From contig JAFGNO010000093.1 of NCBI GenBank assembly GCA_016926985.1, positions 2,933-66,932 of the forward strand: DNA of 64,000 nucleotides. Reading direction: 5' to 3'. Under the pieces are notes generated by a model. The model saw only the letters and a list, made by a program, of their open reading frames with translations. It was not told the DNA's origin and made no database searches. Below are positions 1,281 through 60,672 of the stretch, one piece after another. The stretch comes from Anaerolineae bacterium. Its GTDB lineage: Bacteria; Chloroflexota; Anaerolineae; Aggregatilineales; UBA3940. How positions within the stretch are numbered: the stretch's first letter is position 1; each line of letters begins with the position of its first letter. The position numbers and the translations under genes were made by a program.

Positions 1281-1494
1281 GACCGGTGAACCCGCTCAAG
1301 TCATAGATTTCATCCCAGGTCGCAGCGCATGCTCCGCATGTGACCGGGAGAAGCAGCCGGGTGTCCCCTTCTGCGATGACAACGCGCTCCGGTTTGAGAT
1401 GGTCACTGCTGTAGACCGGACAGTGTGAACCGTCATAGCGCAGCGTCCGTTTTCGATGTCGAAAACAGGATTGGATCATGGATGGAATGTTCAT
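1222..1494 (-). CDS. hypothetical small protein (last gene of leftward early operon)
   Basis: 90 aa. ATGA overlap with the upstream gene at 1491-1494. Its 3' end overlaps the integrase 3' end by 59 nt. Contains palindrome copy 1. Confidence 0.4.
   Translation of the reverse strand: MNIPSMIQSCFRHRKRTLRYDGSHCPVYSSDHLKPERVVIAEGDTRLLLPVTCGACAATWDEIYDLSGFTGLSASGPWEQSGRAPQSDRR
1449..1466. repeat. 18-bp palindrome family copy 1
   Basis: GTTTTCGATGTCGAAAAC. Confidence 0.9.
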
Positions 1495-1727
1495 CCTTCT
1501 TCCTTTCGCCAGATGAAAAAATGACCCGGCGTGGTATTCTGGCAGTGCTCCACAGCCAACCCATCGATTTGAAACCCCTCCATTTCACCGGGGTGAAACG
1601 TCACCCGGCTCGGCTCGCCAGCCTCCCAAAAATCCTGCAGGGCCCGTTCCACCTGCTTCTGGCGTTCCTCCGGTTTGGTGGACCGGAAACTGTATGCCCT
1701 GAAATCCCACAGGATGCCCGGTTTCAT
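1491..1727 (-). CDS. hypothetical protein
   Basis: 78 aa starting MKPGILWDF. ATGA overlap with the primase stop (1724-1727) and with the next gene (1491-1494). Confidence 0.55.
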   Translation of the reverse strand: MKPGILWDFRAYSFRSTKPEERQKQVERALQDFWEAGEPSRVTFHPGEMEGFQIDGLAVEHCQNTTPGHFFIWRKEEG

Positions 1728-2644
1728 GCGCTTGCCTCTCGAACCCAGGTATCCAGCGCCTTTCTCGCGCCGGTCTGATCGGCCAGAATCCACTCGTCCA
1801 GATCCTTGAATGGACCGGGCGGGAATTTCAACAACCCACCGAGATCCATGGCACGCTGCGACGCAGCCCTGACGCCGGCATCATCGTTGTCTCCCACGAC
1901 AACGATCCTTGCAAAGGCCAGGGCCCGGCGCCATTCCTCCTCAAAGGAGGTTTCCCCCATGCCCGGTGCGCAGGCTTGATATCCCAGCTGGGTCATCAAC
2001 ATGGCCGGGATCTCCGCCTTGACGTAGAAAACCACAGTGCGGGCATATTTGACCGCATCATGATTGAACAGGGATTTGCGGGAACCCTTTTCAACCAGGT
2101 ACCGCATCCCGGTCTTGAGGGCCCGTTTCTTGATGCTCATCAATTTGCCGTTGGTGAAAGCCGGGATGGTGAGGTAGTCCCGGTCCTGGCCCAGCCCAAA
2201 CAACTCAATGGAATGATCGCTCAACCCGCGTTGGTGCGCGTAGGCTCTGCCTTCCGATCCGATCGGCAGAAAATCCAGGTATCGCTTTTGCGGCAGGCCC
2301 TGGCGCTTCGGCTGCCCGGCGGGGAGGCTCCATGTCATCTCCCGCCGGGCCTGGAGCGCATCCACAGCCCGGCGGAGCATGACCGGGTCCGCAGGATGGT
2401 ACCCACTCACCCACAGATACCCGGCCAGATCGATCACATCCCCCTGCAGCCCACAATTTCCATGGCATTTGAAACGCTGAACACCATCCGGGGAGATGAA
2501 GACACTGAAGGACGCCGTGAAGTTGTGGTGTGCATGCTGCGGAAGCGGGCACACCCCATAGTCACGCGACATCTCCACGCCCAGGTCCGTCAGGACCTCG
2601 CGGATATCATACAGGGCGCGCAGTGCCTTCAGATCCCCCTCCAT
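1724..2644 (-). CDS. DNA primase (CHC2 zinc finger + TOPRIM, DnaG-like)
   Basis: CPLPQHAHHNFTASFSVF...FKCHGNCGLQGDVIDL (CHC2 finger). VKAEIPAMLMTQLGY and VVVGDNDDAG (TOPRIM E and DxD). ATG at 2644 overlaps the upstream TGA (TGATG). Alternative TTG start at 2647. Confidence 0.88.
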   Translation of the reverse strand: MEGDLKALRALYDIREVLTDLGVEMSRDYGVCPLPQHAHHNFTASFSVFISPDGVQRFKCHGNCGLQGDVIDLAGYLWVSGYHPADPVMLRRAVDALQARREMTWSLPAGQPKRQGLPQKRYLDFLPIGSEGRAYAHQRGLSDHSIELFGLGQDRDYLTIPAFTNGKLMSIKKRALKTGMRYLVEKGSRKSLFNHDAVKYARTVVFYVKAEIPAMLMTQLGYQACAPGMGETSFEEEWRRALAFARIVVVGDNDDAGVRAASQRAMDLGGLLKFPPGPFKDLDEWILADQTGARKALDTWVREASA

Positions 2645-2982
2645 CAAGCGGTCTCCATAATGTAGGGTAAAAGGTCACAGGCATGGTTCAAACGGATATA
2701 GTTCCTGCCCTCGTCCTGGTCCTGGATATAGGAAATCCAGTAGCGGAAGAGGTGTTCGTTCTCATAGCAAATCTCAAATTCCTTCCCTTCAAGGAGAAAG
2801 CGTGCCCGCGGTGTCATCAGGGCCGGCCAGAGATGCGTGATCGTAACGGGTGCCTCGTATTCAAAGAAAGCCTGGATATCCCGCGTGGCCTTCACCATCA
2901 GGCGGTCCTTTTCCTGTGTTTCGCGGGCAAGTTGTTTTTGCTGTTCTTGCTGCACCTTTTTCAGTAAATGGTCTGTCAGCAT
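2644..2982 (-). CDS. hypothetical protein
   Basis: 112 aa, coding-like composition, RBS GGAGGAA upstream, coupled to primase. Confidence 0.6.
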   Translation of the reverse strand: MLTDHLLKKVQQEQQKQLARETQEKDRLMVKATRDIQAFFEYEAPVTITHLWPALMTPRARFLLEGKEFEICYENEHLFRYWISYIQDQDEGRNYIRLNHACDLLPYIMETA

Positions 2983-3042
2983 GGTTCCTCCTTGGGAAGG
3001 GTCATGACCTGTATCCTGCGAGAGAGTTCCGGCGAAGACATT

Positions 3043-3699
3043 TCATCCCTCAGTGCGCAGATCAAAGCGGGCGATATCATGGAACAGAAAGGCGGGCGCC
3101 GGTTCTCCTTTCAACAGATGCATGACCTGGTTGGCGATATGCCCGGCAGCCATGAACGCAGTGAAGATAATCGCCTTGGCTGTACAGGGATCGTTGGGAA
3201 CATCCTCTTCGCGTGTCCCCATCAGCATGGTCTCATACCAGGCCGTGCCCCCGGAGAGGTCGATGGTATAGAGCTGAAATGTCTGGGCCGACATGCGGCT
3301 GTCCAGCCAATAGCGGGTAAACCCGGAGCGCCGGGCCTGCCAGACCTGCTGACGGGCGGTGATGCTGTCGAGCGCAGTGATAACGAGGTCCACGTCCGGC
3401 AGATGGGTATCCGGCGTGACCCTGGACCGGTACGCGACCCCTTTGCCATCGGTGAAAAAGCGGATAGCCTCAATCAGGCCAACCACCTTGGGCTTTCCCA
3501 CCGCGCCGATGGGTAAAAGCTGGTTGGGAATATTCACGTCCTCGATGGTGTCGAAGTCATACAGGTACAAATGCCCGATGCCCATCTTCGCCAGCGCCAG
3601 GGCCGTGGCAGCTCCGATCCCGCCGGTGCCGATCACCGCAACATGGGCGCTCTTCAGAATTTCGGGATGAATGATGTCGATGGATCGTGTATGGTTCAT
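3043..3699 (-). CDS. ThiF/MoeB-family E1-like adenylyltransferase (minimal, 218 aa)
   Basis: Rossmann loop VAVIGTGGIGAATALALAKMGIGHLYLYDFDTIEDVNIPNQL. Also DLVITALDSITARQQV and a Cys in NDPCTAKA. ATG at 3699 with GGAGGA 8 nt upstream. A longer ORF runs to 3780 but has no RBS. Confidence 0.8.
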   Translation of the reverse strand: MNHTRSIDIIHPEILKSAHVAVIGTGGIGAATALALAKMGIGHLYLYDFDTIEDVNIPNQLLPIGAVGKPKVVGLIEAIRFFTDGKGVAYRSRVTPDTHLPDVDLVITALDSITARQQVWQARRSGFTRYWLDSRMSAQTFQLYTIDLSGGTAWYETMLMGTREEDVPNDPCTAKAIIFTAFMAAGHIANQVMHLLKGEPAPAFLFHDIARFDLRTEG

Positions 3700-3819
3700 G
3701 GGTCCTCCACAGGGCGAGCAGCTGTACGGACGGAGCGGGAGACCCGGTTCCCCGGCCCGCGTTCGGAGTGCAGGGGACACACTGAACCATCAGCCGGTGG
3801 CTTGATGGGCAGACGGAGC

Positions 3820-4548
3820 TCAGCGATCCCAGGTATAGCGCGCATACGCTTCCTGAAGTTCATCAAAGGAAATCAATCCCAGTTCATGCAGTTCATAGAT
3901 GGTGAGATCATACAGATCAGCGACCTCCTCCGGCGATCCCGCCCGCAGGAGGGCACGGACCTCCTCGATGACGTCCGCATTCAGGCCGTAGGAACGCAGA
4001 TCCAGCCTCGGCGCCGGTGTCCAGTACGAAGTGAGCGCCTGCTGTCTGGGGGGCGCAGGGACGCGCACAGGCGCCAGGGCTGATGCGTACTCTTGCGGGG
4101 TCAGGACCTGCTCCACCGGCAGGTGATAAACAGTTTTGGAACCATGATCATCCAGGCGACCCACCCACCCCAGGGGTGTGCGCACAACCGCCAGGGACCA
4201 CTTGACCAGTTCCGGCAAAGAACCCAGGGGTTCCTGGGTGGCGGTGTGGACATCCGTCGCGGACCAGTTGTGGTCGCCGGGTATTCCATTTCCAATCGGA
4301 TGACGGTGAAGCCAACACTTCAGTTTTTCGGGCGCAATCCCGGATGCGTGCAGTTCGAGGATTTTATGGGTGGAGATTTCGGTGTAGACCGAGCTGCCGA
4401 CATCGAGCAGGAAGGCGTCGGTGAGAAGAAAGTTGCGGTTTTCGATGTCGAAATCAACGGTGGCTAACCCGGATACTTCCAGGCCGCCTGCAGAAGCGCA
4501 CCAGCCTTCCATCTTCAACAGCGTGGTGGGAGTAGGAACAATCTTCAT
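3820..4548 (-). CDS. JAB/MPN (JAMM) metallopeptidase-domain protein
   Basis: 242 aa. Glu in GGLEVSG. JAMM motif HRHPIGNGIPGDHNWSATD (HxH..S..D). ATGA overlap with the upstream gene at 4545-4548. Contains palindrome copy 2 (VDFDIEN). Confidence 0.8.
   Translation of the reverse strand: MKIVPTPTTLLKMEGWCASAGGLEVSGLATVDFDIENRNFLLTDAFLLDVGSSVYTEISTHKILELHASGIAPEKLKCWLHRHPIGNGIPGDHNWSATDVHTATQEPLGSLPELVKWSLAVVRTPLGWVGRLDDHGSKTVYHLPVEQVLTPQEYASALAPVRVPAPPRQQALTSYWTPAPRLDLRSYGLNADVIEEVRALLRAGSPEEVADLYDLTIYELHELGLISFDELQEAYARYTWDR
4438..4455. repeat. 18-bp palindrome family copy 2
   Basis: GTTTTCGATGTCGAAATC (inside the JAB gene). Confidence 0.9.
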
Positions 4549-5267
4549 AACGCACCTTCCCTGCGGGAGGTATACGGGGGATGGCAGAGGGCATCCGCCG
4601 GATTGATATTGCCGACGTACTTGTGCAGGTAGTCAAACAGACTGGCGACGTCGGCATCCTCGAACAGGGCGGGAATAATGCCGGCGAACCCGCCCCAGCA
4701 GGTACTGGCAAGATAATCGAGGGGATTGGCGTTCTCCTCTGGAATTTGGGCAGTCTGATGCATGTGCCGGTACCTCTCCCTGGGGTCCTGCGCCGGGAGG
4801 ACATGCACCGACGGAGACAGGGTGCCAAAAGAGCTGGTGTTGACACACACATAATACGGACCGTGGTCATAGGTCCCGGCATAATATCCCTGCTCGTGGA
4901 CGGTCACGAAGCTGTCGGTCTGGGCCACCATCCAGTCAATCCCCCGGTGATGTTTGACGGTCAGCATTTTGTAGGGGAGGCGCTTCAGCCGTGTGACCTG
5001 GTAGTCAAAACCGCCGCGGCGCGCCGCGGTTCCGGTTCCGGCGTCCTGCAGCTGCGCCAGCTGGACCTGCAGGTGCTTGATTTCCTCGGCCATGGCTGCC
5101 CTGCGGAATGAGGCCGCGTCGGTGTTCTGATAGTGAAGGCGCTTGGTACGCAGTTTCTCTTCCAGGTTCTCCCGGTGTCGCAGCAGACAGGTTTGCAACA
5201 GGTCCAGGAATTTCGGGTCGATCTGTACTTGGGTGGTTTCATGAATCGGTGCCAGTCGGATTGGCAT
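4545..5267 (-). CDS. hypothetical protein in the E2 position of the Ubl cassette (candidate E2-like)
   Basis: 240 aa from MPIRLAPI (RBS CAGGAGGAGA). N-terminal coiled coil (AEEIKHLQVQLAQLQ). C-terminal half has three Cys (YYVCVN, LASTCWGG, ALCHPPY). The function is inferred from gene order only. Confidence 0.35.
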   Translation of the reverse strand: MPIRLAPIHETTQVQIDPKFLDLLQTCLLRHRENLEEKLRTKRLHYQNTDAASFRRAAMAEEIKHLQVQLAQLQDAGTGTAARRGGFDYQVTRLKRLPYKMLTVKHHRGIDWMVAQTDSFVTVHEQGYYAGTYDHGPYYVCVNTSSFGTLSPSVHVLPAQDPRERYRHMHQTAQIPEENANPLDYLASTCWGGFAGIIPALFEDADVASLFDYLHKYVGNINPADALCHPPYTSRREGAL

Positions 5268-5282
5268 GGGTCTCCTCCTGAA

Positions 5283-5312
5283 AGAAGGAGAGGCCCGCAG
5301 GCCCCTCCTTCT
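5283..5312 (-). promoter_or_regulatory. intercistronic GC-rich stem-loop between the Ubl gene and the enzyme genes
   Basis: AGAAGGAG-A-GGCC-cgca-GGCC-C-CTCCTTCT (8+4 bp). On the leftward transcript it is followed by UUUC and then the RBS. Confidence 0.5.
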
Positions 5313-5325
5313 TCTGCGCGGGCTC

Positions 5326-5634
5326 TTATCCGCCCTTGATGTTGCCGTAGGCGGAGATGCGCATGCCGGAAGCAACGTGGACAGCGCCGGGATCAACCAC
5401 CTGCCCTTCCACCCAAAACTGCGTGGATGCGGGGACGTTGATGTCTGCGGCCAGCACCGCTTCCATGATGGTCTGCGGGACCACCTCACCAGCCTCCGTG
5501 CGCTGGATGGGCAGATACACCCGCTCCCCGCCGTTGGTGATCAGGGTTGCCATTTCCACCTGATCATAGTCCTGCGCCACCAGCGACTGCTCGATTTCAG
5601 CTGCAAACTCTTCGGGTAATGAAAAGTCACTCAC
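5326..5634 (-). CDS. ubiquitin-like / ThiS-MoaD-type beta-grasp protein ending in Gly-Gly
   Basis: 102 aa ending ...VHVASGMRISAYGNIKGG-stop. RBS CAGGAGGC. First gene behind a consensus promoter. Confidence 0.7.
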   Translation of the reverse strand: MSDFSLPEEFAAEIEQSLVAQDYDQVEMATLITNGGERVYLPIQRTEAGEVVPQTIMEAVLAADINVPASTQFWVEGQVVDPGAVHVASGMRISAYGNIKGG

Positions 5635-5681: not shown

Positions 5682-5710
5682 ATTATACATAGACTTGTAA
5701 CAGTTGTCAA
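5682..5710 (-). promoter_or_regulatory. consensus sigma70 promoter of the leftward early operon (TTGACA-17-TATAAT)
   Basis: Minus strand reads TTGACAACTGTTACAAGTCTATGTATAAT. The spacer contains CTGTTACAA (palindrome-family site). Confidence 0.75.
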
Positions 5711-5716
5711 CCACAT

Positions 5717-5745
5717 TTGCTTTCTCTGTTACAGTTTGCTATAAT
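5717..5745 (+). promoter_or_regulatory. promoter of the HTH gene (TTGCTT-17-TATAAT with TGn), probably a leaderless mRNA
   Basis: TTGCTTTCTCTGTTACAGTTTGCTATAAT. ATG at 5752 lies 6 nt after the -10 and no RBS is present. The spacer contains CTGTTACAG. Confidence 0.7.
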
Positions 5746-5751
5746 GGACGC

Positions 5752-6393
5752 ATGTCTGATGAACCCCTCCTTCCCCTGGATGAACGCCGGCACCCGGACG
5801 GGCGCCGGAAAATCAATCTGACCCGGACCGAGCGCGCTGAAATCCGGCGGCGGCGCATGATCGAAGCCGCTGTTGCCATGTTCCTCAACCCCTACGAACA
5901 CCTGCGGACGCAGGATATCGCCGCTGAACTGGGGATCTCCACCAAAACGCTGAAGAAGATCACCCAGGATGAAACCTTCATCGAGTTGTATAACGATCAC
6001 TTCCTGGAAGTCTCCCATGACCCGCGCATTCAACTGGTGCGCAGCTCCATCGGTGAAATTGCACCCTTGGCCCTGCAGCGTCTGACCGAGATGGTCGAGA
6101 AGGAAACCACACCCCCGACGGTCCTGCTCAATGCCATCAAACTGATCTTCGAAAAAGCGGGTATTGAACCGGTGAACGTGCGCAGCAGTGACAAGAAGGA
6201 GCTGGTGGACTTTCTCAATGACCGCGGCGTGAACATCCAGCAGATGAACGTGAACATCCACGCCCCCAGCGAATATGAAGAGGTGTATGCAGAAGTCCTG
6301 GAAGGCGTAGTGCGCGAGCCGGCCTCGTTGCTGGCCCCTACGGAAAAAGATGCCGCTGTTTCAGTGACACAAAGTGACGATCCCCTACAATGA
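5752..6393 (+). CDS. HTH DNA-binding protein (putative regulator; TerS-like architecture not excluded)
   Basis: 213 aa. HTH in LRTQDIAAELGISTKTLKKITQ. Divergent from the early operon. Confidence 0.55.
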   Translation: MSDEPLLPLDERRHPDGRRKINLTRTERAEIRRRRMIEAAVAMFLNPYEHLRTQDIAAELGISTKTLKKITQDETFIELYNDHFLEVSHDPRIQLVRSSIGEIAPLALQRLTEMVEKETTPPTVLLNAIKLIFEKAGIEPVNVRSSDKKELVDFLNDRGVNIQQMNVNIHAPSEYEEVYAEVLEGVVREPASLLAPTEKDAAVSVTQSDDPLQ

Positions 6394-6904: not shown

Positions 6905-6922
6905 TTCCTCATCCTTTCGCGC

Positions 6923-6960
6923 AGTGAGGCTGCTTCTGAGAGCAGCCTCACTTTTGTATT
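6923..6960 (+). terminator. stem-loop plus T-tract (rightward terminator or radC leader structure)
   Basis: AGTGAGGCTGC-ttctgaga-GCAGCCTCACT followed by TTTTGTATT. Confidence 0.4.
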
Positions 6961-7030
6961 GAAAAGCCGGAAGGCACCCACCAGGCCCGAACAGAACCGT
7001 TTCACGCGCCAGAAGCCTGCTTCCCATCCC

Positions 7031-15323: not shown

Positions 15324-15341
15324 CTATTCGACATCGAAAAC
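15324..15341. repeat. 18-bp palindrome family copy 3
   Basis: CTATTCGACATCGAAAAC. Its right flank CTCAC is shared with copy 13. Confidence 0.8.
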
Positions 15342-18329: not shown

Positions 18330-18399
18330 GGTGTCTCCTGTTGTCATCCGGATCTGTCTCCTGAATTTGCAATACGGCGCCCCTGCAGCTGAGGGGTGC

Positions 18400-18417
18400 C
18401 TTTTCGACGTTGAAAAC
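18400..18417. repeat. 18-bp palindrome family copy 4
   Basis: CTTTTCGACGTTGAAAAC. Intergenic. Preceded by the hairpin CCCCTgcagctgAGGGG. Confidence 0.85.
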
Positions 18418-19568: not shown

Positions 19569-19586
19569 CTTTTCGACGTCGAAATC
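19569..19586. repeat. 18-bp palindrome family copy 5
   Basis: CTTTTCGACGTCGAAATC (non-coding region). Confidence 0.9.
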
Positions 19587-20085: not shown

Positions 20086-20103
20086 CTTTTCGGCGTCGAA
20101 AAC
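20086..20103. repeat. 18-bp palindrome family copy 6
   Basis: CTTTTCGGCGTCGAAAAC (non-coding region). Confidence 0.85.
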
Positions 20104-20252: not shown

Positions 20253-21704
20253 TCACAGGACGGTGAGCAGCTCGGAGCCCCAGCCTCTGGACTGGAGCAG
20301 TTCGACCAGCTTTCCGCGTTTGTCCTGGCTGAGCCTGAAGCCTTCATTCTGTGCGATCAGTCCGGCCACCCGGTAGGTCACGACCCGGTCGGCGTCTCCG
20401 TGTTTGATGCGCAGTCCATGCGGAAGGACGCCGGTGATCTCTTTGGACTGGGAAGAGGCGATCTCCCCGGCGGCACGGGCGGCCACGTAGAAAGCCCGGC
20501 CTGCCGTCTTGCGGTCAGCGCCGTGCATCTTTGCCTGGAGGTAGGCTTCGTAGCCAGCTTTGGAGGTGCGCGATCGCCAGAACTCCCAGGCAAGGTCGGT
20601 CGCGGACTTCTTTCCGTCATCCGTACTGTACAGCGGTGCGCCGGCCAGGACAGCCTGGATGTAACCTTCGACCCAGTAGCGGGAACGGACGACAGAGGTG
20701 TCGTCAACGTCCATCGTGTCAAGATACTCCCGGAGCATGGCATCGGCGGTATCCGCGATCTCCTGCTGCCGGGGTTCGCCCAGATGGACACCGGGGCGCC
20801 CATCCCGATCGAGGTCGAGATCCTCCAGGATTTCATCCACCGTCAGACCATTGGAACAGAGGATCTGGGCCCCGTTTTCGACATCGAAACAGAACCCGTG
20901 CTGAAACCGGGAGAACATTTCAGCGATATCTTCCGGCTCATACTTCCAGACCATGGACTGCAGAGACGCAAGGAACTGTTCAGCTTCCGCTGAGTTTTGT
21001 ACCCTGCGCCGGATACGCGGGATCTCATAGGGAAACCCCATCTTGCCGACACGGGACCGTGCGTGTTCAATCTCCTGATCGATCCTGCGCCGGAGCGCCT
21101 GCACATCCGCACGCATCTCGATCCCGAGATCCGCAATCTGGGAGGTGTATTCAGGAAGCAGGCTCTCCGGCAGGTAGCCGCGATCATCATCGGGTAAGAA
21201 GTCATCGTCCTCGCTGCCGATATAGTCCCGGTTGGCAGCGATGAATTGTGCGTTGAGTTCATCGGTTGGATATGGCCGGCGTTCATACAGGTAGCGGGTC
21301 CAGTCCGAGACCGGGAGAGACTGCCGGTTCTTCCTGCGAATATCCGGGTCATCCAGTTCGTCCTCAATCTCCTGTTCATCGTCAATCAGCTCCCCGGTGT
21401 AGCTGTCCAGCCAGCGCCGCTCCTCCACCTCAGACAAGGGTCCCGTTTGCTGATAGGTAAGGGTCCGCACAGCCTGCTGCAAAGCCATCGTATGCAGCGG
21501 CTGGACCACGCGGGTCTGTCGCAGCAGGGGCAGATGCTTGCGGGCCAGGTCCGCCCAGGTCGCCTCAATCAGGCCGGCTTTTTTGTCAGCGATATCCTGC
21601 CGGGCATGGATCAGCGCCGCGGGTTCCAGCATGATCCCGGTCCTGTCTTCAGAGTGGTACGGAAGGCTGATCGCAGTCCGGGTTCCATCCATTTTCTCAG
21701 TCAT
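20253..21704 (-). CDS. large hypothetical early protein
   Basis: 483 aa from MTEKMDG (GGGAGAG RBS). Acidic and coiled regions. No motif recognised. Contains palindrome copy 7 (CFDVEN). Confidence 0.65.
   Translation of the reverse strand: MTEKMDGTRTAISLPYHSEDRTGIMLEPAALIHARQDIADKKAGLIEATWADLARKHLPLLRQTRVVQPLHTMALQQAVRTLTYQQTGPLSEVEERRWLDSYTGELIDDEQEIEDELDDPDIRRKNRQSLPVSDWTRYLYERRPYPTDELNAQFIAANRDYIGSEDDDFLPDDDRGYLPESLLPEYTSQIADLGIEMRADVQALRRRIDQEIEHARSRVGKMGFPYEIPRIRRRVQNSAEAEQFLASLQSMVWKYEPEDIAEMFSRFQHGFCFDVENGAQILCSNGLTVDEILEDLDLDRDGRPGVHLGEPRQQEIADTADAMLREYLDTMDVDDTSVVRSRYWVEGYIQAVLAGAPLYSTDDGKKSATDLAWEFWRSRTSKAGYEAYLQAKMHGADRKTAGRAFYVAARAAGEIASSQSKEITGVLPHGLRIKHGDADRVVTYRVAGLIAQNEGFRLSQDKRGKLVELLQSRGWGSELLTVL
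20874..20891. repeat. 18-bp palindrome family copy 7
   Basis: GTTTTCGACATCGAAACA (inside the 483-aa gene). Confidence 0.85.
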
Positions 21705-23019: not shown

Positions 23020-23247
23020 CTACGACCGGGACCCCTCCACCGCAGAAAGCTCCCTCGAATACAGCGGCGGAGGAACCCGGTAGCAGCTGCATTCCCAGCC
23101 ATCCCCGCGGGCAGAAGAGAACATCCTCCTGCCGCAGCGCCGGCAGCAGGGTCTCCGGTCCGGTTTGGCCGGTGCCACAGTTGGCTTCTGTGGAATGCGG
23201 TTTTCGATGTCGGAAACGAACCGCGCCATCAATGCCTCTCGATTCAT
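23020..23247 (-). CDS. possible small Cys-rich protein
   Basis: 75 aa from MNREALMARF with GGGAGG RBS. Contains CCRRCG...CSC. Composition is borderline. Contains palindrome copy 8. Confidence 0.3.
   Translation of the reverse strand: MNREALMARFVSDIENRIPQKPTVAPAKPDRRPCCRRCGRRMFSSARGDGWECSCYRVPPPLYSRELSAVEGSRS
23200..23217. repeat. 18-bp palindrome family copy 8
   Basis: GTTTTCGATGTCGGAAAC. Confidence 0.85.
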
Positions 23248-26566: not shown

Positions 26567-27085
26567 ATGAAGCCTGTCCCCAAACCGGAACCTTCCTCCC
26601 GCGGACACGGTTCGCAGAGAAACCGCTCGATCGTGGATGCAGCGCGGGAACGCGATGGTGTGTGCCTGGTTGGATTGTGGAGCCAGGATGGATGTGTCCC
26701 TGGCGTGGATGTAGCCCATATCCGGGGCTGGGGCGCCCACCGCTCCTCAGCAGACGTGTTGGAAAATGTGATCTGCCTGTGCCGCAAGCATCATCAGCTG
26801 CATGAAAACGGCGCCATCCCGGATATCACCCTGCAGGGCATCCTGTATCACTACTACGGCTATGGACCGGAACCGGATGTCGTACAAGCCCTGGACTGGA
26901 TCAGGGAATTCGCCCAGTCCTACGGCCTGCAGGCAACCTTCCGCCTGACCGATGCCTTGATCACCGTGCGGTACGCCGGGTTGTTTTCCAATCTCACACA
27001 GGACATCTCCTGGCCGGTCCTGGAACGGCGCACCATGCTGACAACCACTGTGGATGATTTTCTGTATTCCAAGACCAGGAAGTAG
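26567..27085 (+). CDS. HNH endonuclease (terminase-associated type)
   Basis: VAHIRGWGAH...NVICLCRKHHQLHENG. Immediately upstream of TerL. Confidence 0.85.
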   Translation: MKPVPKPEPSSRGHGSQRNRSIVDAARERDGVCLVGLWSQDGCVPGVDVAHIRGWGAHRSSADVLENVICLCRKHHQLHENGAIPDITLQGILYHYYGYGPEPDVVQALDWIREFAQSYGLQATFRLTDALITVRYAGLFSNLTQDISWPVLERRTMLTTTVDDFLYSKTRK

Positions 27086-27102
27086 TTTTCGACGTCGAAA
27101 TC
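27085..27102. repeat. 18-bp palindrome family copy 9
   Basis: GTTTTCGACGTCGAAATC. Starts at the last base of the HNH stop codon and ends 10 nt before the TerL ATG. Confidence 0.9.
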
Positions 27103-28617: not shown

Positions 28618-28881
28618 ATGCCGGTGTACACCTATGTCTGCCCGCAGTGCAGCCGGGTTTTCGATGTCGAAAAGTCGATGACGGCGCCCCACCCTGTTCA
28701 CTGTGAGGACTGCGGGTATCAAGGTCCGTTGATGCGACGCTTCAATCAACCTTCAATCAAGTACAGATGTTCAGGCTTCTACACCACAGACAAGAAACTG
28801 GACACGTTCGTTCCTGGCTATGACGGGCCGGATGAAGTGACGTTGATGGAGATGGGGGAGGATGTGCCTGGGGAGGGGTGA
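28618..28881 (+). CDS. FmdB-family zinc-ribbon protein
   Basis: MPVYTYVCPQCSRVFDVEK...HCEDCG. Contains palindrome copy 10. Confidence 0.8.
   Translation: MPVYTYVCPQCSRVFDVEKSMTAPHPVHCEDCGYQGPLMRRFNQPSIKYRCSGFYTTDKKLDTFVPGYDGPDEVTLMEMGEDVPGEG
28657..28674. repeat. 18-bp palindrome family copy 10
   Basis: GTTTTCGATGTCGAAAAG (inside the FmdB gene). Confidence 0.9.
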
Positions 28882-38810: not shown

Positions 38811-39932
38811 ATGGCATTAGACGCGCCAACCATTTCCAGCATCGCGGGCACCTATCAATCAACCGCTCCCAACGGTCCGTACGGCATCCGCTACCTTCTG
38901 GAGCAGATCGCAGCCAATCTGGAAGCAGCAGAACTTCCGGACGGCATCGCTCAAAATCCAGGCCAGGTCGCCAGTGCCCGTATCCGGATTGCCAGTGCGG
39001 TGCAGGACGCCGAAACCGTCACCATCGGTACAGATGTGTACGAGTTCGATACGCACGACCCGGCGCGCCTGGCAGCAGCCACCGCCATCCGGGTCAACGT
39101 GTCCGGCGGAAGTACGGTCCAGGCACAGGGCACCCTGACCCTGGATACCCAGCCCACTGCCGGGGATACCATGACCCTTGGCACCAAGGTCTACACCTTT
39201 GTCCCGGATGGCACAGCCAATGGTGATGGGGAAATCGACCGGGGAGCAGACCTGGCAGCAGCGAAAGTAAATATTGTGGCAGCCATCAATGGCACGGATG
39301 AAATTAATACGCCACACCCGCTGGTATCAGCAGCCGATTTCTCCAGTGATGACTGTGTGATCACCGCACTGGCCGGCGGCACCGCTGGCAACAGCATCCC
39401 CAGTACGGAGACCTTCACAGCAGGGACCAATGTTTTCGACGCCGAAACCCTGGGCACCACAACTGCCGGCGTTGACCCGACCGCAGGGGAAGCATCCGAT
39501 GCCCTGATCGCCGCCATCAACACAAGCGGCACCGAAGACATCACCGCGATCGACATCAGCGCCAATGAGGTGCTGCTGGTCGGAAGCGAAGTGGGAGCCA
39601 ATACGACGGCACTGTCAGAAACCTTGGCCGGGGCAAACAACACCATCGACGCTGCCATGGCAAACGGAGAAGCCGCAGCCGATGTCATCATCTTCCAGAC
39701 CAGCCGCGTGCCTGCCGCTTCGGATGTGGCCCTGGGCAACCTGTTCTTCGCCCTGGACTTCGTTCCCGACAGTGCCCTGGCACAGGTCCGGGTAACGGCA
39801 ACCGGCGCTCTGAAAGCATGGGACGGAAAACTGACCATCACAGGGGGAGATCATCCGTACGTTCAGCTGGATAACAGCGGCTCGACTGACTGGGCTACCA
39901 CCGATACCGTTTCATTGATCGCCTTTGCATAA
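38811..39932 (+). CDS. Ala/Thr/Gly-rich structural protein with internal repeats
   Basis: 373 aa from MALDAPT (AGGAGA RBS). Repeats ETVTIGTDVYEF and DTMTLGTKVYTF. Contains palindrome copy 11. Confidence 0.6.
   Translation: MALDAPTISSIAGTYQSTAPNGPYGIRYLLEQIAANLEAAELPDGIAQNPGQVASARIRIASAVQDAETVTIGTDVYEFDTHDPARLAAATAIRVNVSGGSTVQAQGTLTLDTQPTAGDTMTLGTKVYTFVPDGTANGDGEIDRGADLAAAKVNIVAAINGTDEINTPHPLVSAADFSSDDCVITALAGGTAGNSIPSTETFTAGTNVFDAETLGTTTAGVDPTAGEASDALIAAINTSGTEDITAIDISANEVLLVGSEVGANTTALSETLAGANNTIDAAMANGEAAADVIIFQTSRVPAASDVALGNLFFALDFVPDSALAQVRVTATGALKAWDGKLTITGGDHPYVQLDNSGSTDWATTDTVSLIAFA
39432..39449. repeat. 18-bp palindrome family copy 11
   Basis: GTTTTCGACGCCGAAACC. Confidence 0.8.
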
Positions 39933-44444: not shown

Positions 44445-44462
44445 CTTTTTGACGTCGAAAAC
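44445..44462. repeat. 18-bp palindrome family copy 12
   Basis: CTTTTTGACGTCGAAAAC. Directly after the major tail stop. Followed by the hairpin AGAGAGGggcgcccctgctCCTCTCT. Confidence 0.85.
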
Positions 44463-51979: not shown

Positions 51980-51980
51980 T

Positions 51981-54900
51981 ATGCGAACACTGCCGGTTGG
52001 TTTTCTTTCCGACGTCGAAAACTCACGCTCCATTTCTGCCCGGCTCACGTTTCGGGATAACCGCCTGGTCTTCACCGAGCGTGTGCTCGCGGACAGCCTC
52101 GGCCTGGCCGACCCGTCAACTGCCGACGCCGCCCCATCCGGCACCGGCATCCTCCGGGTTGTGAACTATTCCAACGCATTGTATACGCAGGACATCACCG
52201 ATCCCTCCTCCATTCTGTACCCGGATTGGGCAGATGCTTCCATTTCCCTGGCAGTCTCCAGCAGGCCGGGTGTTGAGGGTGACAGGATTTGGTATCAGGA
52301 CAGCATTGGCGACATCTATTACTGGGATTACCCGTCCGGTTCTCCCGTCCTCGTCACGAGCTCCTACGCTGCTTACACCGTGACCCTGGCGCCGGTCAGC
52401 ACCAGTGTGTGCTACATCCATTTCCTCGATCAGGGATGGGGCAGGATTGTTCGCCTCACCAGCGCCGGCGCCGAGACGGAGTGGCAGGGCCGTATCTATG
52501 GCAATGTTGTCACCGCCCAGTATTTCGATGCTGTAACCCTGAATGGCGAGGATCACCTCTACGCAGCAGACCAGAATGATGGCAGGCTGCTGACCCTCAA
52601 GTATTACGAGGGTATCTGGAGCGACACCTCGTATGTCATCCCGCTCGATGTGGTTGATGAAACCTCCTACTTCCGCATGGCGTATGCCAGTGTGATTGAC
52701 GGCAAGGTTGTTATCACCGGAAGGTTGTCCCGGCAGACGGAATACGACGTCCCGGTCGCCTTTGATATCTACACCTTCGGGCCGGACCACTACACCATGG
52801 GACGTGATTTGTTTGTCAGCCAGGAGGATATCGGCGGGAAGATGTTCCTGATTGACAGCATGCTGTTCTACGTGGGCATCAATACGGTCAGCGAAGCAGA
52901 TGCGACCATGCTGGTTGGATACGATCACCCGGACCACAAGGTCGTGGTGAACGATCTGCACAGCTGGTCCCTGGGGTGTGCCGGGAATACATCCGGGCAG
53001 TTCTCTGCGTCCCTGGCGCGCTCGGAAGAAGATGCCATGATCCGCAGGAATGCGGAAGCCCTTCTTGAGATCAACATCAACGGAGCATGGGCAACAATGG
53101 CAACGGTCTCCCTCGATACGGTGACTGCCACGGATGATATGGATCGCCAGGAGCTGCTTCTATCCGGTCGCTCCTCTGCGATCAAGAAACTCTCGATGTG
53201 GGAGAGCGATCAGAACTACGACTACTGGTCGCAGGCCAAGCTGTCTGCTCATCCCGGAGAGCTGGAGAATGTCATCCGTGTGACCGGGCTTTGGGACGAG
53301 GCGGACGCGGGACCGCTGGAGCTGGAAGACCTGAACGTGGATGGCGTGCTGTATATGAGCGCCAAGGCGTCCCGCGGCGGCCTGATGAGAGCGAAATTCC
53401 AGAAGCCCACTGCCGATGATTTCTCTCCGCTGTACGGCGTTGCGCTCAACTATTACTACAACACTGAGGCGGAGATTGGGCACAATGGTCTCCTCGCAAT
53501 CTGGGGTGACGATCAGCACAGCGGCGGCGCCGGTATCGGTTTGTATTACTGGGATGACGGAGTGATGACCCTGCTGACCAGCGCTTCCCTTTCAATCCCG
53601 GATGATACCTGGCACTGGCTGATGATGACATTCCAGGATGGATTGATCCGTGTCTTCTACCGGCTGGACAGCACAACGACATGGACTTCGGTGATTTCCA
53701 TGGTGTTCGATGAAGAGGACTATCTCCCCTGGAAACGGGAAGCCTTCGGTCGTGGTGGGCTGTACATTCGCAATCGAACGCCCTACTCCATGACCCCTGG
53801 GTTCAGCAGCAACAGCATGATCCTGCCCGTTGAGAGTACGGCTTCATTTCCGACGTCGGAAACAGTGGTCGTCAATCAGGAGAAGATCACCTATGATGGC
53901 ATCCTGTCGGGCACCCCTATCCCCGGTGATCTCATTTATGACCCGGATGGATATACAGCTACCAGGGCCACTCACAATAACTCCTACTTTGATGGATCGG
54001 AAATTGTCGCCAGGGATGGCGCGTACATCCCGGCCGACCGCAACCTGAATTCATCAGCCTCCTATCTTTTCGGTCCATCCTGGAAACAAACGGGCCTCAC
54101 GATGGTTACGGAAATCAAGTTTCTGCTAAAACGCAACGGGTCTCCCCCGCCCCTGTATTGTTACCTGGTACATGACCACTATGATAATCAAGCCCCCCAG
54201 CAACAGTACGTTCGATCATGGGGAAGCGTCAGCTACAGCTCGGTCGGCACATCGTATTCGTGGGTCACGTTCACAATCACCAATCCGGTCTGGACTTCGC
54301 CAACGGGCTATTTCGCGATGTTGACCATGAGAAATCCATCCACCGGGGCGCATCCCGGATACGATGCCTCCAATTATTGGACCGTTCAAATTGACAACAA
54401 CAATCTTGAGAGACCTGGGGTAATTCGTGCCTATAACAACGGGTGGTACACCGTGGAAGGTATTGCGGTCCCATTCCAGGTGCTTGGGCGCAACAGAACC
54501 GGCACCGGGTATGAGATTTATCTCGATGGTCGCGGCTCTCCGTGTGAACGGGATACCTATAATAATTTCTCCCTGGTCGTCACGGACGGCCCCGGCAAGG
54601 GCTCCGTATTCACAGTTACGGACTATGACTGGCAGGCCCCGAACCAGTGGGTTCCGAACCAGGAGTATGAAGCGCCGGAGAAGTGGCAGGATTATGCTGG
54701 CCTGAGCGGTCATGGCAGCTGGGCAACATCGAACCTGAGCCGCATCTTCGTTCAGGAAAATCCCAGCGGGATCATCGGCGCCGGTACAGTTTTCAGGATG
54801 TGGCCCTCCCTCCTTGTTTCAGAGCGCGGCGTCGATGGTACTTTGAGCACTTCCCACGGCGAGACAGAGGTATCTGTTTACCGCGATGCATCGGTCCAGA

Positions 54901-55988: not shown

Positions 55989-57726
55989 CGCCAACATCAC
56001 TGCCATCGTTCAACAGGTTCTTGCCCGGAGGGAAGCGTATGAAGCGTCTTCCGGGATTGTCTTCGCCATTGACGGAGACCGGGTGGATTTACGGATCAGC
56101 GGCTCAGCCAATGTTATCCGCAATGTCGCGGTGATTGGCTCCGCCTCCAGTCTGGCAGTCGGTCAGGAAGTATCACTCCGCTGGGAGAACGGGCGCCCCA
56201 TCGCGCTGGCAACTTCAACCAGTCAAGCGCAGACGATCGTATCCACCGCTGGTGCATCATCCGATGTCGAGGTGGACGATGACACCATTGAACATTCTGC
56301 CTTCGGCCTTCGGATTAAGGCGGGCTCGCTGCAGCAGTGGCACCTCGCATTCACGCCCTCCGTAGAGGGGCACACGCACAAGGACAGTCTGGAACGCGCC
56401 GGTTGGCAGGTTGATACGGATGGGGCCATTTTCAAGAACGACACCTTCATTCATGCTGATGGGCAGTTGTCTCTTGGTGAGGGTGCGGATGTCATCAAGC
56501 TCGACAGCACCCACCCGGTTTACCGTATCTGGGCTGGCGCCCTGACCCCGGAAGCATCTACGTTTTCGGTGTCGAAAACTGGCGAGCTGTATGCCACCGC
56601 CGGCCAGATCGCCGGTTGGGACATTGAAGCAGATAAGCTCACCAAGAACAACATAGACCTTGATCCATCGGGCCAGATCACAGTAGGTACAGGCGACGAT
56701 ATCGCTGTACTGAGTTCAATTGACCTGGATGACTACGCCTTTTGGGTTGGCAGTGCCACGCCAGCTACGGCTCCATTCCGTGTGAAAAGCACTGGCGAGG
56801 TCTGGCTGGAAAATGCGCATGTTGCAACAGAGTTGGAGAGCACCAACTATGCGTCGGGGATTGCCGGATGGAAGATTGACCAGAGTGGCTGGGCTGAATT
56901 CAACGATGTCACGATCCGGGGCGAGATCGTTGCCTCCGTGTTCAAGACAGAAGAGGTTTCAGTCATTGCCGGGCGCCAGCGAATTACTGACGGAACAACA
57001 TTTGCGATTGATGCGGACAGCGTCGACACCATGATTACCCTGACAGATCCGGTTTTTGAGATGCACGATCTTCTGTATGTTGTTCCGTCTGCGGGGACAA
57101 AAGAGTGGATGCAGGTAACCGGCGAATACACTCACACCGCAGATGGGTATGAATATCCAGTGATGCGCGCGGCGGACGGCATGACAGCTCATGACATCAT
57201 GGCGGGTACATCCATTCATTCAACCGGTGCAGCCACCTGGCCTGACCCAGTGCCTTTGTTTGGCGAGATCCAGTTTGGCGAGGAACTTTTCGGAGGTGGC
57301 CCGTATGCTGCATTGGGTGGCTTCCTGACACTGGAGGGGTCCAGGGACTATGGCCCCTACTTTGGTGTAGCCCGTCGCTTCGGCCCGCATCCATATCAGA
57401 TTGCAGACGTAGCCAGGTTTGGTCTGGTGCGCGGCTTTCTGGGAATAGGCGAAACTGAATATGGTGTTGCGATTGGCGATGCCAACCGACATTTTATCTA
57501 CACCTATAATTCGGGTCTCGAAATCCAGACCGACGAAGGAAATCTGATCATTAATGATAATGGTCTTCGCGTAGACCGTGTGACTTTTACACCGCGCACG
57601 GTTGCCCCGAACTATGTGGACCAGACTTTAATCATCTGGTTGGACGACAGCGGAAATCTCATGGGCCGTTATAAGGACGGAGCCACGGAGACAGAAGCGA
57701 CGATCCAAGCCTTTGGAGGAGCGTAA
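55972..57726 (+). CDS. tail fibre/tail protein
   Basis: 584 aa in the structural block. Contains palindrome copy 15. Confidence 0.55.
   Translation: MPRGLNANITAIVQQVLARREAYEASSGIVFAIDGDRVDLRISGSANVIRNVAVIGSASSLAVGQEVSLRWENGRPIALATSTSQAQTIVSTAGASSDVEVDDDTIEHSAFGLRIKAGSLQQWHLAFTPSVEGHTHKDSLERAGWQVDTDGAIFKNDTFIHADGQLSLGEGADVIKLDSTHPVYRIWAGALTPEASTFSVSKTGELYATAGQIAGWDIEADKLTKNNIDLDPSGQITVGTGDDIAVLSSIDLDDYAFWVGSATPATAPFRVKSTGEVWLENAHVATELESTNYASGIAGWKIDQSGWAEFNDVTIRGEIVASVFKTEEVSVIAGRQRITDGTTFAIDADSVDTMITLTDPVFEMHDLLYVVPSAGTKEWMQVTGEYTHTADGYEYPVMRAADGMTAHDIMAGTSIHSTGAATWPDPVPLFGEIQFGEELFGGGPYAALGGFLTLEGSRDYGPYFGVARRFGPHPYQIADVARFGLVRGFLGIGETEYGVAIGDANRHFIYTYNSGLEIQTDEGNLIINDNGLRVDRVTFTPRTVAPNYVDQTLIIWLDDSGNLMGRYKDGATETEATIQAFGGA
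56562..56579. repeat. 18-bp palindrome family copy 15
   Basis: GTTTTCGGTGTCGAAAAC. Confidence 0.85.
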
Positions 57727-59000: not shown

Positions 59001-59004
59001 GGCG

Positions 59005-59661
59005 ATGGCTATTTCAAGAGTATCGTATTCCAATCCGGCATTAAGCACTTCGGCTGGGGCTACAACTACGGTCCCCCTGAATGTCGGCACGGGGCCTGGG
59101 CGATTTGTGATTGCCTTTATGTGCGGAGAAAACGCCTGCGGAAGTTTCATCCGGGAAAACAGCACCACAACGAATGATTTCACGAAGGTCCTAATCGATA
59201 CGTGTCAGGGCTACTATTATCGCGCTGTTACCGGAACTGGAACCGTTAACTTTTATGTTAAAACTGGCAGCACGTATGAGCAAGTGCATTTCGCCTGCTA
59301 CCAGGGAGTGGACACAGGCGCGGTCGCCTACCTTGGCGGAAAGGGGTTTGTTCAATCCAATCGAAGCTGGTCTGAAAACTATTCCAAGAATGGCTTTCTC
59401 TGGGCTGGACACGGTATGGAGCGTGGGCAGGAAAACAGCTTTAGCGTCACCGTAGCCTCTGGCGTCAACCATCTCAGCAGCCGCTGTGTCGGAACCTGTT
59501 ATGGAAGTCGCGGGGCTGCGTGCGATAGATACGTGTCCGGCAGCGGCAGTGTTACGATGGGCTGGTCTGGGTTCGATGGAACCAGTTACGGCACTGGACC
59601 AAGTGTGTTTCTTCCTGAAAAGACCGCAGGCGGCAACAAAATCTTTGGGGGTGTATTTTGA
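59005..59661 (+). CDS. hypothetical structural-module protein
   Basis: 218 aa from MAISRVSYSNPAL. Confidence 0.45.
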   Translation: MAISRVSYSNPALSTSAGATTTVPLNVGTGPGRFVIAFMCGENACGSFIRENSTTTNDFTKVLIDTCQGYYYRAVTGTGTVNFYVKTGSTYEQVHFACYQGVDTGAVAYLGGKGFVQSNRSWSENYSKNGFLWAGHGMERGQENSFSVTVASGVNHLSSRCVGTCYGSRGAACDRYVSGSGSVTMGWSGFDGTSYGTGPSVFLPEKTAGGNKIFGGVF

Positions 59662-60314
59662 GAGCCTTCATCATTGGAACCGGACCGTCCATCCAGTCCG
59701 TTGACTTCAATCAGTTGCAGGCTGAATACTGTTTCACGACAGGCCGTATTCATCTTCTGCTGCGCGACTTTGACTTCACTCCGGCGGTTCACGTCATCAC
59801 GGAAAGCTCAGTCAATCCTTACTTTCCAGAGGATAGGCAATATCATCTGGCGCAATCGTATGAATTGATTGTCATGGCAGAGTTACTGCCAAAATCAATT
59901 TACGATGACTGGACACGAAAGCCCAATATTACTCCTTACGGCATGTGCCCGCATACGGTACATCATCCTCCTGACGCATGGCATTTCCCCTATCTGTGCA
60001 AACAGGGTGGCGCCGTTCCGGTTGCGATCCAGGCGGCAGTCATGCGTGGCTTTGAGGAGATCTATCTTCTGGGCTGCGATGGGAACTTTCGAGCAACAGA
60101 TGCTCATTCTGGCAACTATTTCCACACAGATTACAACATTTCATTCGGGTCTCAATTCGCAGAGGAGCGCAATCAAAGCCTGATGCTTGCTCACACCCTT
60201 GCCGCTAAAGAGTGTGCCGAGCGGGGTGTGAGTATCTACAATCTGTCGCCGGACAGTATGTTTGATATGTATGAAAAGAAAACACTCACGGAAGTATTGG
60301 AGGAGAAATCATGA
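59658..60314 (+). CDS. glycosyltransferase-like protein (DUF115/MptE-like or GT42-like N-terminus)
   Basis: (TTG start) RAFIIGTGPSIQSVDFNQL... and EIYLLGCDGNF resemble the (I/V)IGNGPSL ... LG.D pattern of Maf/CstII-type transferases. Confidence 0.4.
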   Translation: MRAFIIGTGPSIQSVDFNQLQAEYCFTTGRIHLLLRDFDFTPAVHVITESSVNPYFPEDRQYHLAQSYELIVMAELLPKSIYDDWTRKPNITPYGMCPHTVHHPPDAWHFPYLCKQGGAVPVAIQAAVMRGFEEIYLLGCDGNFRATDAHSGNYFHTDYNISFGSQFAEERNQSLMLAHTLAAKECAERGVSIYNLSPDSMFDMYEKKTLTEVLEEKS

Positions 60315-60655
60315 CCGCAGTAACCCTGAACGTAACACAGCAGTACGATCTTCCCCTGATCACATTCGATGCAGAACAGAACTCCGTCAAGGTGATCCAG
60401 GTGGTGCGCTGGATGCTTCCGGATGGAAACACATGGAAAACACGGGAGTATACCTTCTGGGAAACAGTCCCGGCGCCGGTGACGCGACCTGTCTACGATG
60501 AGCAAGGCGTGCAAACCGGGACCGAGGAGGTTCCGAACCCGGATACCTGGAAGCTGCTTCCCTCTGCGTATGCCCTTGGCGCCAGGGGGCTGTACGACTA
60601 CCTGATCGGACAGGTATCGCCCCTTGAAGAGGCTGAGATCTTGAGCATGGCGTAG
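60311..60655 (+). CDS. hypothetical protein
   Basis: 114 aa. ATGA coupling. Confidence 0.5.
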   Translation: MTAVTLNVTQQYDLPLITFDAEQNSVKVIQVVRWMLPDGNTWKTREYTFWETVPAPVTRPVYDEQGVQTGTEEVPNPDTWKLLPSAYALGARGLYDYLIGQVSPLEEAEILSMA

Positions 60656-60672
60656 TTTTCGACGTCGGAAAC
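60655..60672. repeat. 18-bp palindrome family copy 16
   Basis: GTTTTCGACGTCGGAAAC. Starts at the last base of a stop codon. Followed by the AAAGGAG RBS and the endolysin ATG at 60685. Confidence 0.9.

Follow-up and report, generated by a model that had tools for sequence, protein, structure and literature searches.

What does a phage do with one short palindrome repeated along its genome? The question is raised by a 64,000-nt stretch of DNA (the window; positions 2,933 to 66,932 of contig JAFGNO010000093.1), which is a new integrase-carrying siphophage or prophage of an Anaerolineae metagenome-assembled genome (MAG), and in which an earlier reading made from the letters of the window (the sequence-only reading) had listed 16 copies of an 18-bp dyad. 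A search with the T-type 18-mer GTTTTCGACGTCGAAAAC at up to 3 mismatches recovered all 16 at the same coordinates, each 1-3 mismatches away from the 18-mer and none (0/16) a perfect consensus copy, against a chance expectation of 0.01 matches (mean of 100 dinucleotide shuffles); none of the 100 shuffles reached 16, and the family stands beyond chance as had been claimed. In a scan with a symmetrised position weight matrix (PWM), trained on the same 16 sites that it scored, these sites scored 22.8-30.3. The next-best position reached 13.2, a value also attained by shuffled sequence, so that the sites form a discrete family and a continuum of weak copies is absent. Two further copies lie outside the window, at window-equivalent positions 64434 and -95 on contigs identical to it, the 17th copy being found 11 nt 5' of the start of an AAA_24 gene. 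The phage thus carries at least 18 copies of one 18-bp palindrome, at a density of ~0.25 per kb or roughly one per 3-4 kb.

Symmetry was analysed in 45 non-redundant sites of the phage lineage, oriented by the sense strand, which gave the consensus G-T-T-T-Y-C-G-R-Y-R-Y-C-G-R-A-A-A-C. Base frequencies are mirror images at positions 1/18, 5/14, 8/11 and 9/10, with weak asymmetry only at positions 2/17 (12 vs 4); the centre reads R-Y-R-Y in 41-44 of the 45 sites, and the ±40-nt flanks contain no information. The consensus is symmetric relative to the direction of transcription, which bears out the orientation-independence of the sites. Half-site variants occur singly and doubly (T/C at position 5, C/T at position 6), half-changed sites being about as common as independent half-sites predict, and the stem transitions in the transcribed strand comprise 5 G·U and 6 A·C (~6 vs 8 with later sites, counted by eye). 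The outer 'stem' positions 1 and 2 are non-complementary. A 'loop' which follows a mirror-symmetric rule, a stem conserved in its sequence and mismatches which are blind to the strand together argue for a dyad protein site on duplex DNA and not for an RNA hairpin. The dyads are therefore best supported, from these patterns of sequence variation, as double-stranded DNA sites that would be read by a symmetric dimer, and the alternating purine/pyrimidine centre points to an indirect, shape-based readout.

Judged by the relatives recovered, the motif is a trait of the whole phage lineage. Relatives down to 48% TerL identity carry it as GTTT(C/T)CG-RYRY-CG(G/A)AAAC at ~0.1-0.4 per kb, and the exact 18-mer is not present in them. 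In a census of all palindromes with 5-nt arms, counted per locus with no motif preset, the top palindrome was TTTCG-N4-CGAAA in the window and in L166, and TTCCG-N4-CGGAA in every other relative (the C-type form of the full site is GTTTCCGACGTCGGAAAC). The latter was found 8 times in L178 (in 21.5 kb), 5 times in L179, 4 times in L012, 3 times each in L016 and L181 and twice in L002, compared with a shuffle expectation of 0-0.06 copies per locus. A scan of viral contigs for GTTTCCG-N4-CGGAAAC recovered additional relatives with 48-60% identity in TerL or MCP, including a 69.7-kb contig syntenic with the window from integrase to tail (35-59% amino-acid identity). The sites of this contig add a third type of arm, GTTTCTG...CAGAAAC, which occurs there with one half or with both halves changed. 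One contig which shares the tail genes at 48% identity (L184) has no motif, so the motif does not travel with the tail module. Some individual positions are kept over a range of 48-65% TerL identity: the site within the FmdB gene is found in the window, L181, L261, L297 and L192, the site straight after the tube gene (at the tube/chaperone junction) in the window and L261, and sites upstream of TerL and upstream of the scaffold gene are also kept in relatives. The set of sites seen in the window is thus conserved in related phages, in part down to position.

The intragenic copies show how such sites may be accommodated. Codon-usage scoring places five of them in the frame x-F/S-D-V/I/A-E-x, namely site 2 (4438..4455, D-F-D-I-E-N, within the JAB-like gene 3820-4548, - strand), site 7 (20874..20891, C-F-D-V-E-N, within a lineage-conserved 535-aa gene, 20253-21860, - strand), site 10 (28657..28674, V-F-D-V-E-K, codons 14-19 of an FmdB-like Zn-ribbon gene), site 11 (39432..39449, V-F-D-A-E-T, within gene 38754-39932, + strand) and site 13 (52005..52022, L-S-D-V-E-N, within the tail gene 51885-55988, + strand), the last a hybrid with a C-type left and a T-type right arm. 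Two copies are read in another frame: site 14 (53846..53863, ATTTCCGACGTCGGAAAC), in the same tail gene as site 13 with a frame unlike it, carries the symmetric T5>C / A14>G pair that had been pointed out earlier, which makes both arms C-type as in relatives, and site 15 (56562..56579) lies within the tail gene 55972-57726 (+ strand) in a frame reading F-S-V-S-K. The remaining copies are in non-coding or doubtful sequence. The F-D-V/I-E frame ascribed to the intragenic copies by the sequence-only reading therefore holds for ~5 of 8, and does not extend to 53846 and 56562, nor to 23200 with its doubtful open reading frame (ORF).

Comparison with homologues suggests how these copies came about. 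The FmdB site reads V-F-D-V-E-K in the window and V-S-D-V-E-K in L181, the F>S replacement corresponding precisely to the T5>C arm switch of the L181 sublineage, and three other relatives have a similar FmdB peptide but no site. Homologues of the gene with site 11 read N-V/F-F-D-A-P/A-T and contain the left arm only, the right arm being created by the P/A>E replacement in the window. That selection on the DNA overrides the coding sequence at some sites is supported by these comparisons. Since the homologues show point changes, sites arise by point mutation in tolerant contexts, and this also explains the preference for the F-D-V-E frame. A mobile 18-bp unit inserted into genes is ruled out, as the homologues show point changes and not 6-codon insertions, and a peptide-level FDVE repeat is ruled out by the use of three reading frames together with the non-coding copies.

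About half of the copies had been described as intergenic, and this is borne out: ~8-9 of the 16 are non-coding compared with ~11% of the backbone (binomial p ~1e-4, estimated from the ORF map). Site 1 (1449..1466, GTTTTCGATGTCGAAAAC), with the top PWM score of 30.3, is intergenic, in the gap that separates the convergent integrase (399-1280, + strand) and primase (1724-2647, - strand) genes. Site 3 (15324..15341, CTATTCGACATCGAAAAC) has 3 mismatches, with only 53846 and 20874 scoring lower in the PWM scan, and falls in sequence of doubtful coding status within the GC-richer 15.0-16.1 kb segment separating AT-rich islands 1 and 2; all three AT-rich islands contain zero copies, in agreement with the sequence-only reading. 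Site 4 (18400..18417) is intergenic, 10 nt past the stop of 18428-19024 (- strand) and 52 nt before the start of 18036-18347 (- strand). Sites 5 (19569..19586) and 6 (20086..20103) share a ~770-nt gene-free GC-rich region, the former 121 nt upstream of the RNase H start (18927-19448, - strand) and the latter ~115 nt past the minus-strand terminator at 20246-20219. Site 8 (23200..23217), in the 22968-23626 stretch past the terminator at 23622-23591, is covered only by a low-scoring, non-protein-like ORF and is probably non-coding. Three sites abut genes as had been stated: site 9 (27085..27102) begins on the last base of the TAG stop of the HNH gene (26567-27085) and is followed by GGAG and the TerL ATG at 27113, site 16 (60655..60672) begins on the last base of the TAG stop of 60311-60655 and is followed by AAGGAG and the ATG of the endolysin at 60685, these two ending 10 and 12 nt before the ATG, respectively, and site 12 (44445..44462) begins with the first base past the tail-tube stop codon, at a junction whose equivalent in L261 also has a site.

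The layout of stop codon, site, Shine-Dalgarno sequence (SD) and ATG is seen at 27085, 60655 and 64434, and the 69.7-kb relative has site-AAGGAG-N5-ATG at the head of several early genes. Among the lineage sites, 28 of 86 have both an SD and an ORF start (ORFs of 60 codons or longer) no more than 45 nt away, compared with 14% of control positions, with site-to-start distances mostly of 9-20 nt. A promoter role, including ECF-type -35/-10 elements, is ruled out by the unconserved ±40-nt flanks and by the spacing, as only 10-20 nt between site and start codon leave no room for a promoter; none of the sigma-70-like matches overlapped a site. A terminator role is ruled out as well: strong canonical terminators are located at 20246-20219, 22002-21973 and 23622-23591, away from the motif, and the motif has A/U-rich stems and no T run, unlike the G+C-rich stem and U tract of an intrinsic terminator, and no flank conservation.

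Taken together, the symmetry, the RYRY centre, the independent half-sites, the conservation in the lineage and the override of coding sequence make one dimeric DNA-binding protein with genome-wide operators, as proposed in the sequence-only reading, the best-supported explanation. In its specific form, in which a single homodimeric protein binds the palindromes as duplex DNA and they serve as roadblocks or silencers within operons, we favour it tentatively and place it a little short of an even chance. Each monomer of the homodimer would read a half-site G-T-T-T-(T/C)-C-G, and the system of protein and sites would be ancestral to this lineage of Anaerolineae siphophages, with selection keeping roughly one site per 3-4 kb. 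Sites would arise by point mutation where they are tolerated, i.e. in minimal stop-to-RBS (ribosome binding site) gaps, in long non-coding stretches of the early region and in coding sequence already close to V-F-D-V-E, and the AT-rich defence islands would stay free of them. As the sites lie inside operons and not at promoters, a bound dimer could act as a transcription roadblock or as a genome-wide silencer of lytic genes, functionally like Cluster A stoperators or distal KorB operators. The temperate context, with an integrase and with defence-type AT-rich islands lacking sites, is in keeping with this.

Several points weigh against it. The roadblock effect is purely inferred, and the site-free AT-rich islands may be explained simply by their recent foreign origin. 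No binder was found, none of the DNA-binding candidates of the window has a site at its own promoter, and a 75-aa LexA-like protein of the phage (see below) was not found in the relatives' loci examined; a host-encoded binder or a host-wide motif is possible, the source host chromosome lying outside the genome scan. Finally, in a third of the lineage sites only 6-27 nt separate the site from the start codon that follows, the SD often being directly adjacent, which an RNA or translation role would equally predict and for which genome compaction accounts only loosely.

The closest known case is the 17-bp dyad of the Cluster O mycobacteriophages (5'-TGTTCGGNNNCCGAACA), present in more than 30 copies, many of them intergenic and a third in genes, which are not at promoters and are unoriented, and from which its authors infer a dimeric DNA-binding protein with its function unassigned (PMC4351075). 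The resemblance is one of kind, with no sequence homology: both are short dyads whose 7-bp arms enclose a variable spacer, scattered along ~70 kb of siphophage genome in intergenic and intragenic copies, without link to promoters or orientation, and conserved across a phage group. They differ in their unrelated sequence and in their hosts (Actinomycetota, vs Chloroflexota here), in the spacer (3 bp and A/T-rich, vs 4 bp and strictly RYRY here), in copy number (>30 vs ~18 here) and in the arms, which here switch between sublineages (TTTCG, TTCCG, TTCTG) and are not invariant; also, the Cluster O phages are not obviously temperate, whereas the phage in the window has an integrase. The sequence-only reading had instead compared the sites with the stoperators of Cluster A mycobacteriophages, i.e. 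the sites of the L5 gp71 repressor, which are asymmetric 13-mers oriented with transcription, are present in many copies mostly in short intergenic gaps within operons, and are proposed to halt elongating RNA polymerase and so to silence lytic genes (PMC4351075, PMC3203893). That comparison stands for the distribution, with many copies in short intergenic gaps within operons of a temperate phage and away from promoters, and falls for the structure: the 45 sites analysed here are dyad-symmetric and orientation-free, so that membership of the stoperators fails on their defining feature.

Few phages are known to carry one short site throughout the genome, and such sets are poorly understood, functions being unassigned for both the Cluster O dyad and the SAS elements of Cluster K, and the present case adds a deep, uncultured lineage of Anaerolineae phages with informative natural variation: three arm variants in half and fully changed form, an RYRY centre, conserved junction sites and coding sequence bent to the motif. 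Because of this variation the binder should be findable by co-variation once full genomes exist, and binding assays could use the arm variants directly as specificity mutants. Should the sites indeed work as roadblocks or silencers, stoperator-like silencing of a whole genome would have evolved independently, with a symmetric site and in a different bacterial phylum.

With regard to the binder, the three proteins put forward by the sequence-only reading gained no connection to the sites: the MerR-like gene lies within a foreign AT-rich island, FmdB has no link beyond its gene containing a site, and the helix-turn-helix (HTH) gene at 5704-6393 has no site nearby. The last, a TerS-like HTH protein, is conserved in the 69.7-kb relative and as a lineage-conserved protein is kept as a candidate. 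PDB sequence searches with it, with the 535-aa protein and with a 166-aa protein were uninformative. A second candidate is a 75-aa, stand-alone winged helix of the LexA N-terminal/MarR type, encoded 1.9 kb past the right end of the window (L183 18137-18364, window-equivalent ~65.9 kb) with the DnaB and PD-(D/E)xK genes as its neighbours on either side, which matches LexA (PDB 3k2z, E = 1.4e-5) and has no peptidase domain. LexA-type operators have a 5+4+5 geometry, the Gram-positive SOS box being CGAACRNRYGTTCG, and the motif fits this geometry, but its arm sequence differs, and no co-occurrence of the protein with the motif was found in relatives. A 75%-identical copy of this protein occurs in the same gene order on a metagenome contig of 2.4 kb without sites (L185). 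With only this one close homologue retrieved, on a site-free contig, and none in the relatives' loci, the 75-aa protein was rejected as a conserved partner of the motif. L090 and L174, which encode similar LexA-like proteins, do not contain the motif family. The third candidate is a ParB/KorB-type protein supplied in trans.

This third candidate leads to the alternative that survives best, although we consider it unlikely: the palindromes would be parS- or OB-like sites of a ParB/KorB-family protein, serving partition or the loading of a CTP-dependent sliding clamp which silences at a distance, with the protein encoded in the unsequenced remainder of the phage, in the host or on a co-resident element. 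The half-site resembles that of the canonical parS (tGTTTCAC followed by GTGAAACa) and the Noc site, and plasmid RK2 has 12 OB sites. The sites in the window are likewise palindromic with GTTTC...GAAAC arms, yet 18 bp long with a free 4-bp centre. The KorB operators of RK2 (OB, core TTTAGCGGCTAAA) are dispersed, serve one global regulator and lie in part far from promoters (PMC11790492). They share with the phage sites the T-rich and A-rich outer arms and the regulation by one dimeric HTH protein, and differ in being contiguous 13-16-bp palindromes, as opposed to 18 bp with a 4-bp free centre, and in belonging to a plasmid and not to an integrating phage whose sequence yielded no ParB-family gene. 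Elsewhere, the arms of the phage sites do recur in palindromes beside ParB-family genes, which makes a ParB/KorB binder in trans a live rival: 13 copies of TTTTCGACGTCGAAAA in 1.5 kb beside parA-parB and a Rep3 gene on a Burkholderia contig, ~9 copies of GTTYTCG-CATG-CGAAAAC around a parA / ParB_N+KorB+HTH_ParB operon in a family of 83-92-kb phages, and a perfect C-type site inside a parB-like gene of viral contig L280/L306, which as a single site found after pattern selection carries little weight. On the other side, ~72 kb of phage sequence and the loci of its relatives gave no ParB or ParA in Pfam scans, in BLAST or with a ParB HMM (E<=10), with a small sequence gap remaining, the integrase makes partition not evidently needed, and the sites are unclustered, unlike the usual centromeres.

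Two of these ParB-associated arrays deserve description in their own right. The Burkholderia array (L031 4951-6405, Burkholderia sp. Ac-20365) consists of irregularly spaced, non-coding copies between the parA-parB operon and the Rep3-type initiator, and is probably the centromere of a secondary replicon with the same palindrome as the phage. On L138 (2700-8600), and also on L075, L117, L121 and L159, which are unrelated viral contigs of 54-106 kb, many GTT(C/T)TCGCATGCGAAAAC copies are often paired 41-48 nt apart and directly past stops around the ParB-family operon; an asymmetric variant appears to track gene direction, and an IS605 OrfB/TnpB gene is nearby.

A more ambitious version of the silencing idea is improbable as it stands. 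Here an integrating phage of an uncultured Chloroflexota host would be silenced or organised as a whole, either by a system of the ParB/KorB kind or by one based on a single winged helix of the LexA type, with one small protein switching the lytic programme through ~18 sites at cistron junctions and its specificity co-evolving with all sites (TTTCG, TTCCG and TTCTG arms). Bolder still, the element could act both in DNA, as a site, and in RNA, as a hairpin next to the SD.

An exclusively RNA-based role, which the sequence-only reading had offered as its alternative, seems distinctly unlikely. The element would form an mRNA hairpin (7-bp stem, 4-nt loop) just 5' of the RBS and act in translation initiation, cistron coupling or processing and stability. 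The best argument for such a role is the tight start-adjacent placement described above, with its excess over control positions and with the stop-site-SD-ATG layout recurring in L166, L217/L252/L261 and the unrelated L005; the same placement arises when an 18-bp element is fitted into minimal intercistronic gaps. Symmetric arm changes (T:A>C:G, C:G>T:A) look compensatory, but covariation was not upheld, as G·U was not favoured over A·C and changes in one half-site or in both were equally common. Roughly half of the sites lie within genes, some of them at conserved positions, the stem is conserved in sequence and not just in pairing, and a mirror-symmetric RYRY rule for the 'loop', typical of a DNA dyad, is meaningless in RNA. 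The hairpin itself is weak, at only about -3 to -7 kcal/mol, with z-scores versus shuffles near zero in all but one of the ten copies folded and with several minimum-energy folds lacking it, and the window has no match to Rfam families or tRNAs. The nearest parallel would be the SAS and extended SAS of Cluster K mycobacteriophages, a short element just upstream of many starts, conserved across subclusters and absent from the host, which is an asymmetric 13-mer including the RBS, nearly all in one orientation (PMC3203893). The likeness lies in a repeated short element next to start codons, whereas the phage element is a symmetric dyad that excludes the SD, and half of its copies are not start-associated.

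We regard it as very improbable that the sites are signals for recombination, replication or module exchange, through microhomology or cruciform shuffling of cassettes or as entry sites for a nuclease or recombinase. Three of the six borders of AT-rich islands do have a site nearby (15324, 18400, 28657), sites flank the variable TerL-portal segment in relatives, four sites are grouped in the replication module (18.4-20.9 kb), and the phage encodes PD-(D/E)xK-type nucleases and HNH. The border proximity is only weakly significant (estimated p ~0.03), most sites are away from synteny breakpoints, and recognition by a protein accounts more readily than microhomology for the strict RYRY centre and for a discrete set of sites resembling high-affinity ones. 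In Cluster O, deletions are partly explained by recombination between such repeats, although the authors found few repeats coinciding with rearrangements (PMC4351075).

The weakest alternative is a host-wide repeat of the REP, uptake-sequence or host-regulon type that the prophage merely shares with its Anaerolineae host, which has scarcely any probability left: the exact 18-mer (searched as exact match only, a form absent from the window itself) is found in only 41 stretches over 596 Gb from representative genomes of 185,579 species, in scattered unrelated taxa and in no genome at high copy, so it is not a known host-wide repeat, the motif type tracks the phage lineage and the arm variants its sublineages, and the AT-rich islands of the same element lack it, even though the source Anaerolineae MAG lies outside that scan and three T-type copies at cistron junctions of the unrelated contig L005 could mean a shared host factor. 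Contig L005 is a 7.7-kb viral contig of 49% GC, with its copies at 3944, 6161 and 7378, of which two are perfect and two are located directly past TGA stops. These copies hint that a host factor is shared or that a regulator gene is mobile; no proteins are common to the window and the motif-bearing contigs L005-L007.

As to the phage itself, its TerL is 100% identical to an nr entry from 'Anaerolineae bacterium', and the nearest relatives (55-70% identical in TerL) were found in metagenomes of marine sediment and in Anaerolineae MAGs; INPHARED contained no close relatives (megablast of the DNA, tblastn with TerL). Two Logan contigs identical to the window extend it by 5 kb to the right and 2.9 kb to the left, but their ends do not overlap and could not be closed into a circle. 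Besides the genes already located, the window encodes the tyrosine type of integrase, ThiF (3043-3780), RadC (6338-7027), SSB (22022-22402) and a holin (25271-25789), followed after TerL by the FmdB-type Zn ribbon that contains site 10, by a structural module of portal, capsid, tube and tape measure genes, and by the endolysin, an SH3-bearing lysin. The AT-rich islands (9306-14281, 16389-17669 and 28937-36724) have 35-43% GC compared with ~58% for the backbone, and their cargo is of the defence type: an N-terminal fragment of HsdM, a 564-aa ORF without Pfam match, a 4Fe-4S protein, two N6/N4 DNA methylases with a MerR/HTH_17 gene, an AAA ATPase and an AAA_21/AbiEii-like ATPase. Island 3 fills the gap between TerL and portal, where relatives have ~1.2-1.9 kb of small variable genes.

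Some further features of the early region were noted in passing. The ThiF (E1-like) and JAB-like genes, a neighbouring minus-strand gene, itself kept in a distant relative, and RadC (3043-5489, 6338-7027) look like a phage-borne ubiquitin-like conjugation module; the unrelated motif-bearing contig L280 has a Prok-E2_D gene (3395-4063). The GC-rich stretches 19449-20218 and 22968-23626 are without convincing genes, each starts just past a strong minus-strand terminator and holds one or two copies of the motif, and neither has an Rfam match; similar gene-free stretches of ~1 kb occur in the early region of relatives, and they could be an origin or an unannotated RNA. A perfect sigma-70 consensus, TTGACA-17-TATAAT, at 5710-5682 (- strand), with no site, drives a leftward operon diverging from the HTH gene, in what looks like a switch region. 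Finally, relatives have a 193-206-aa gene between HNH and TerL which overlaps the TerL start (L178 8904-10023) and may be TerS; the window lacks this gene (26567-27112), and its sole TerS-like HTH, at 5704-6393, is encoded 21 kb away from TerL.

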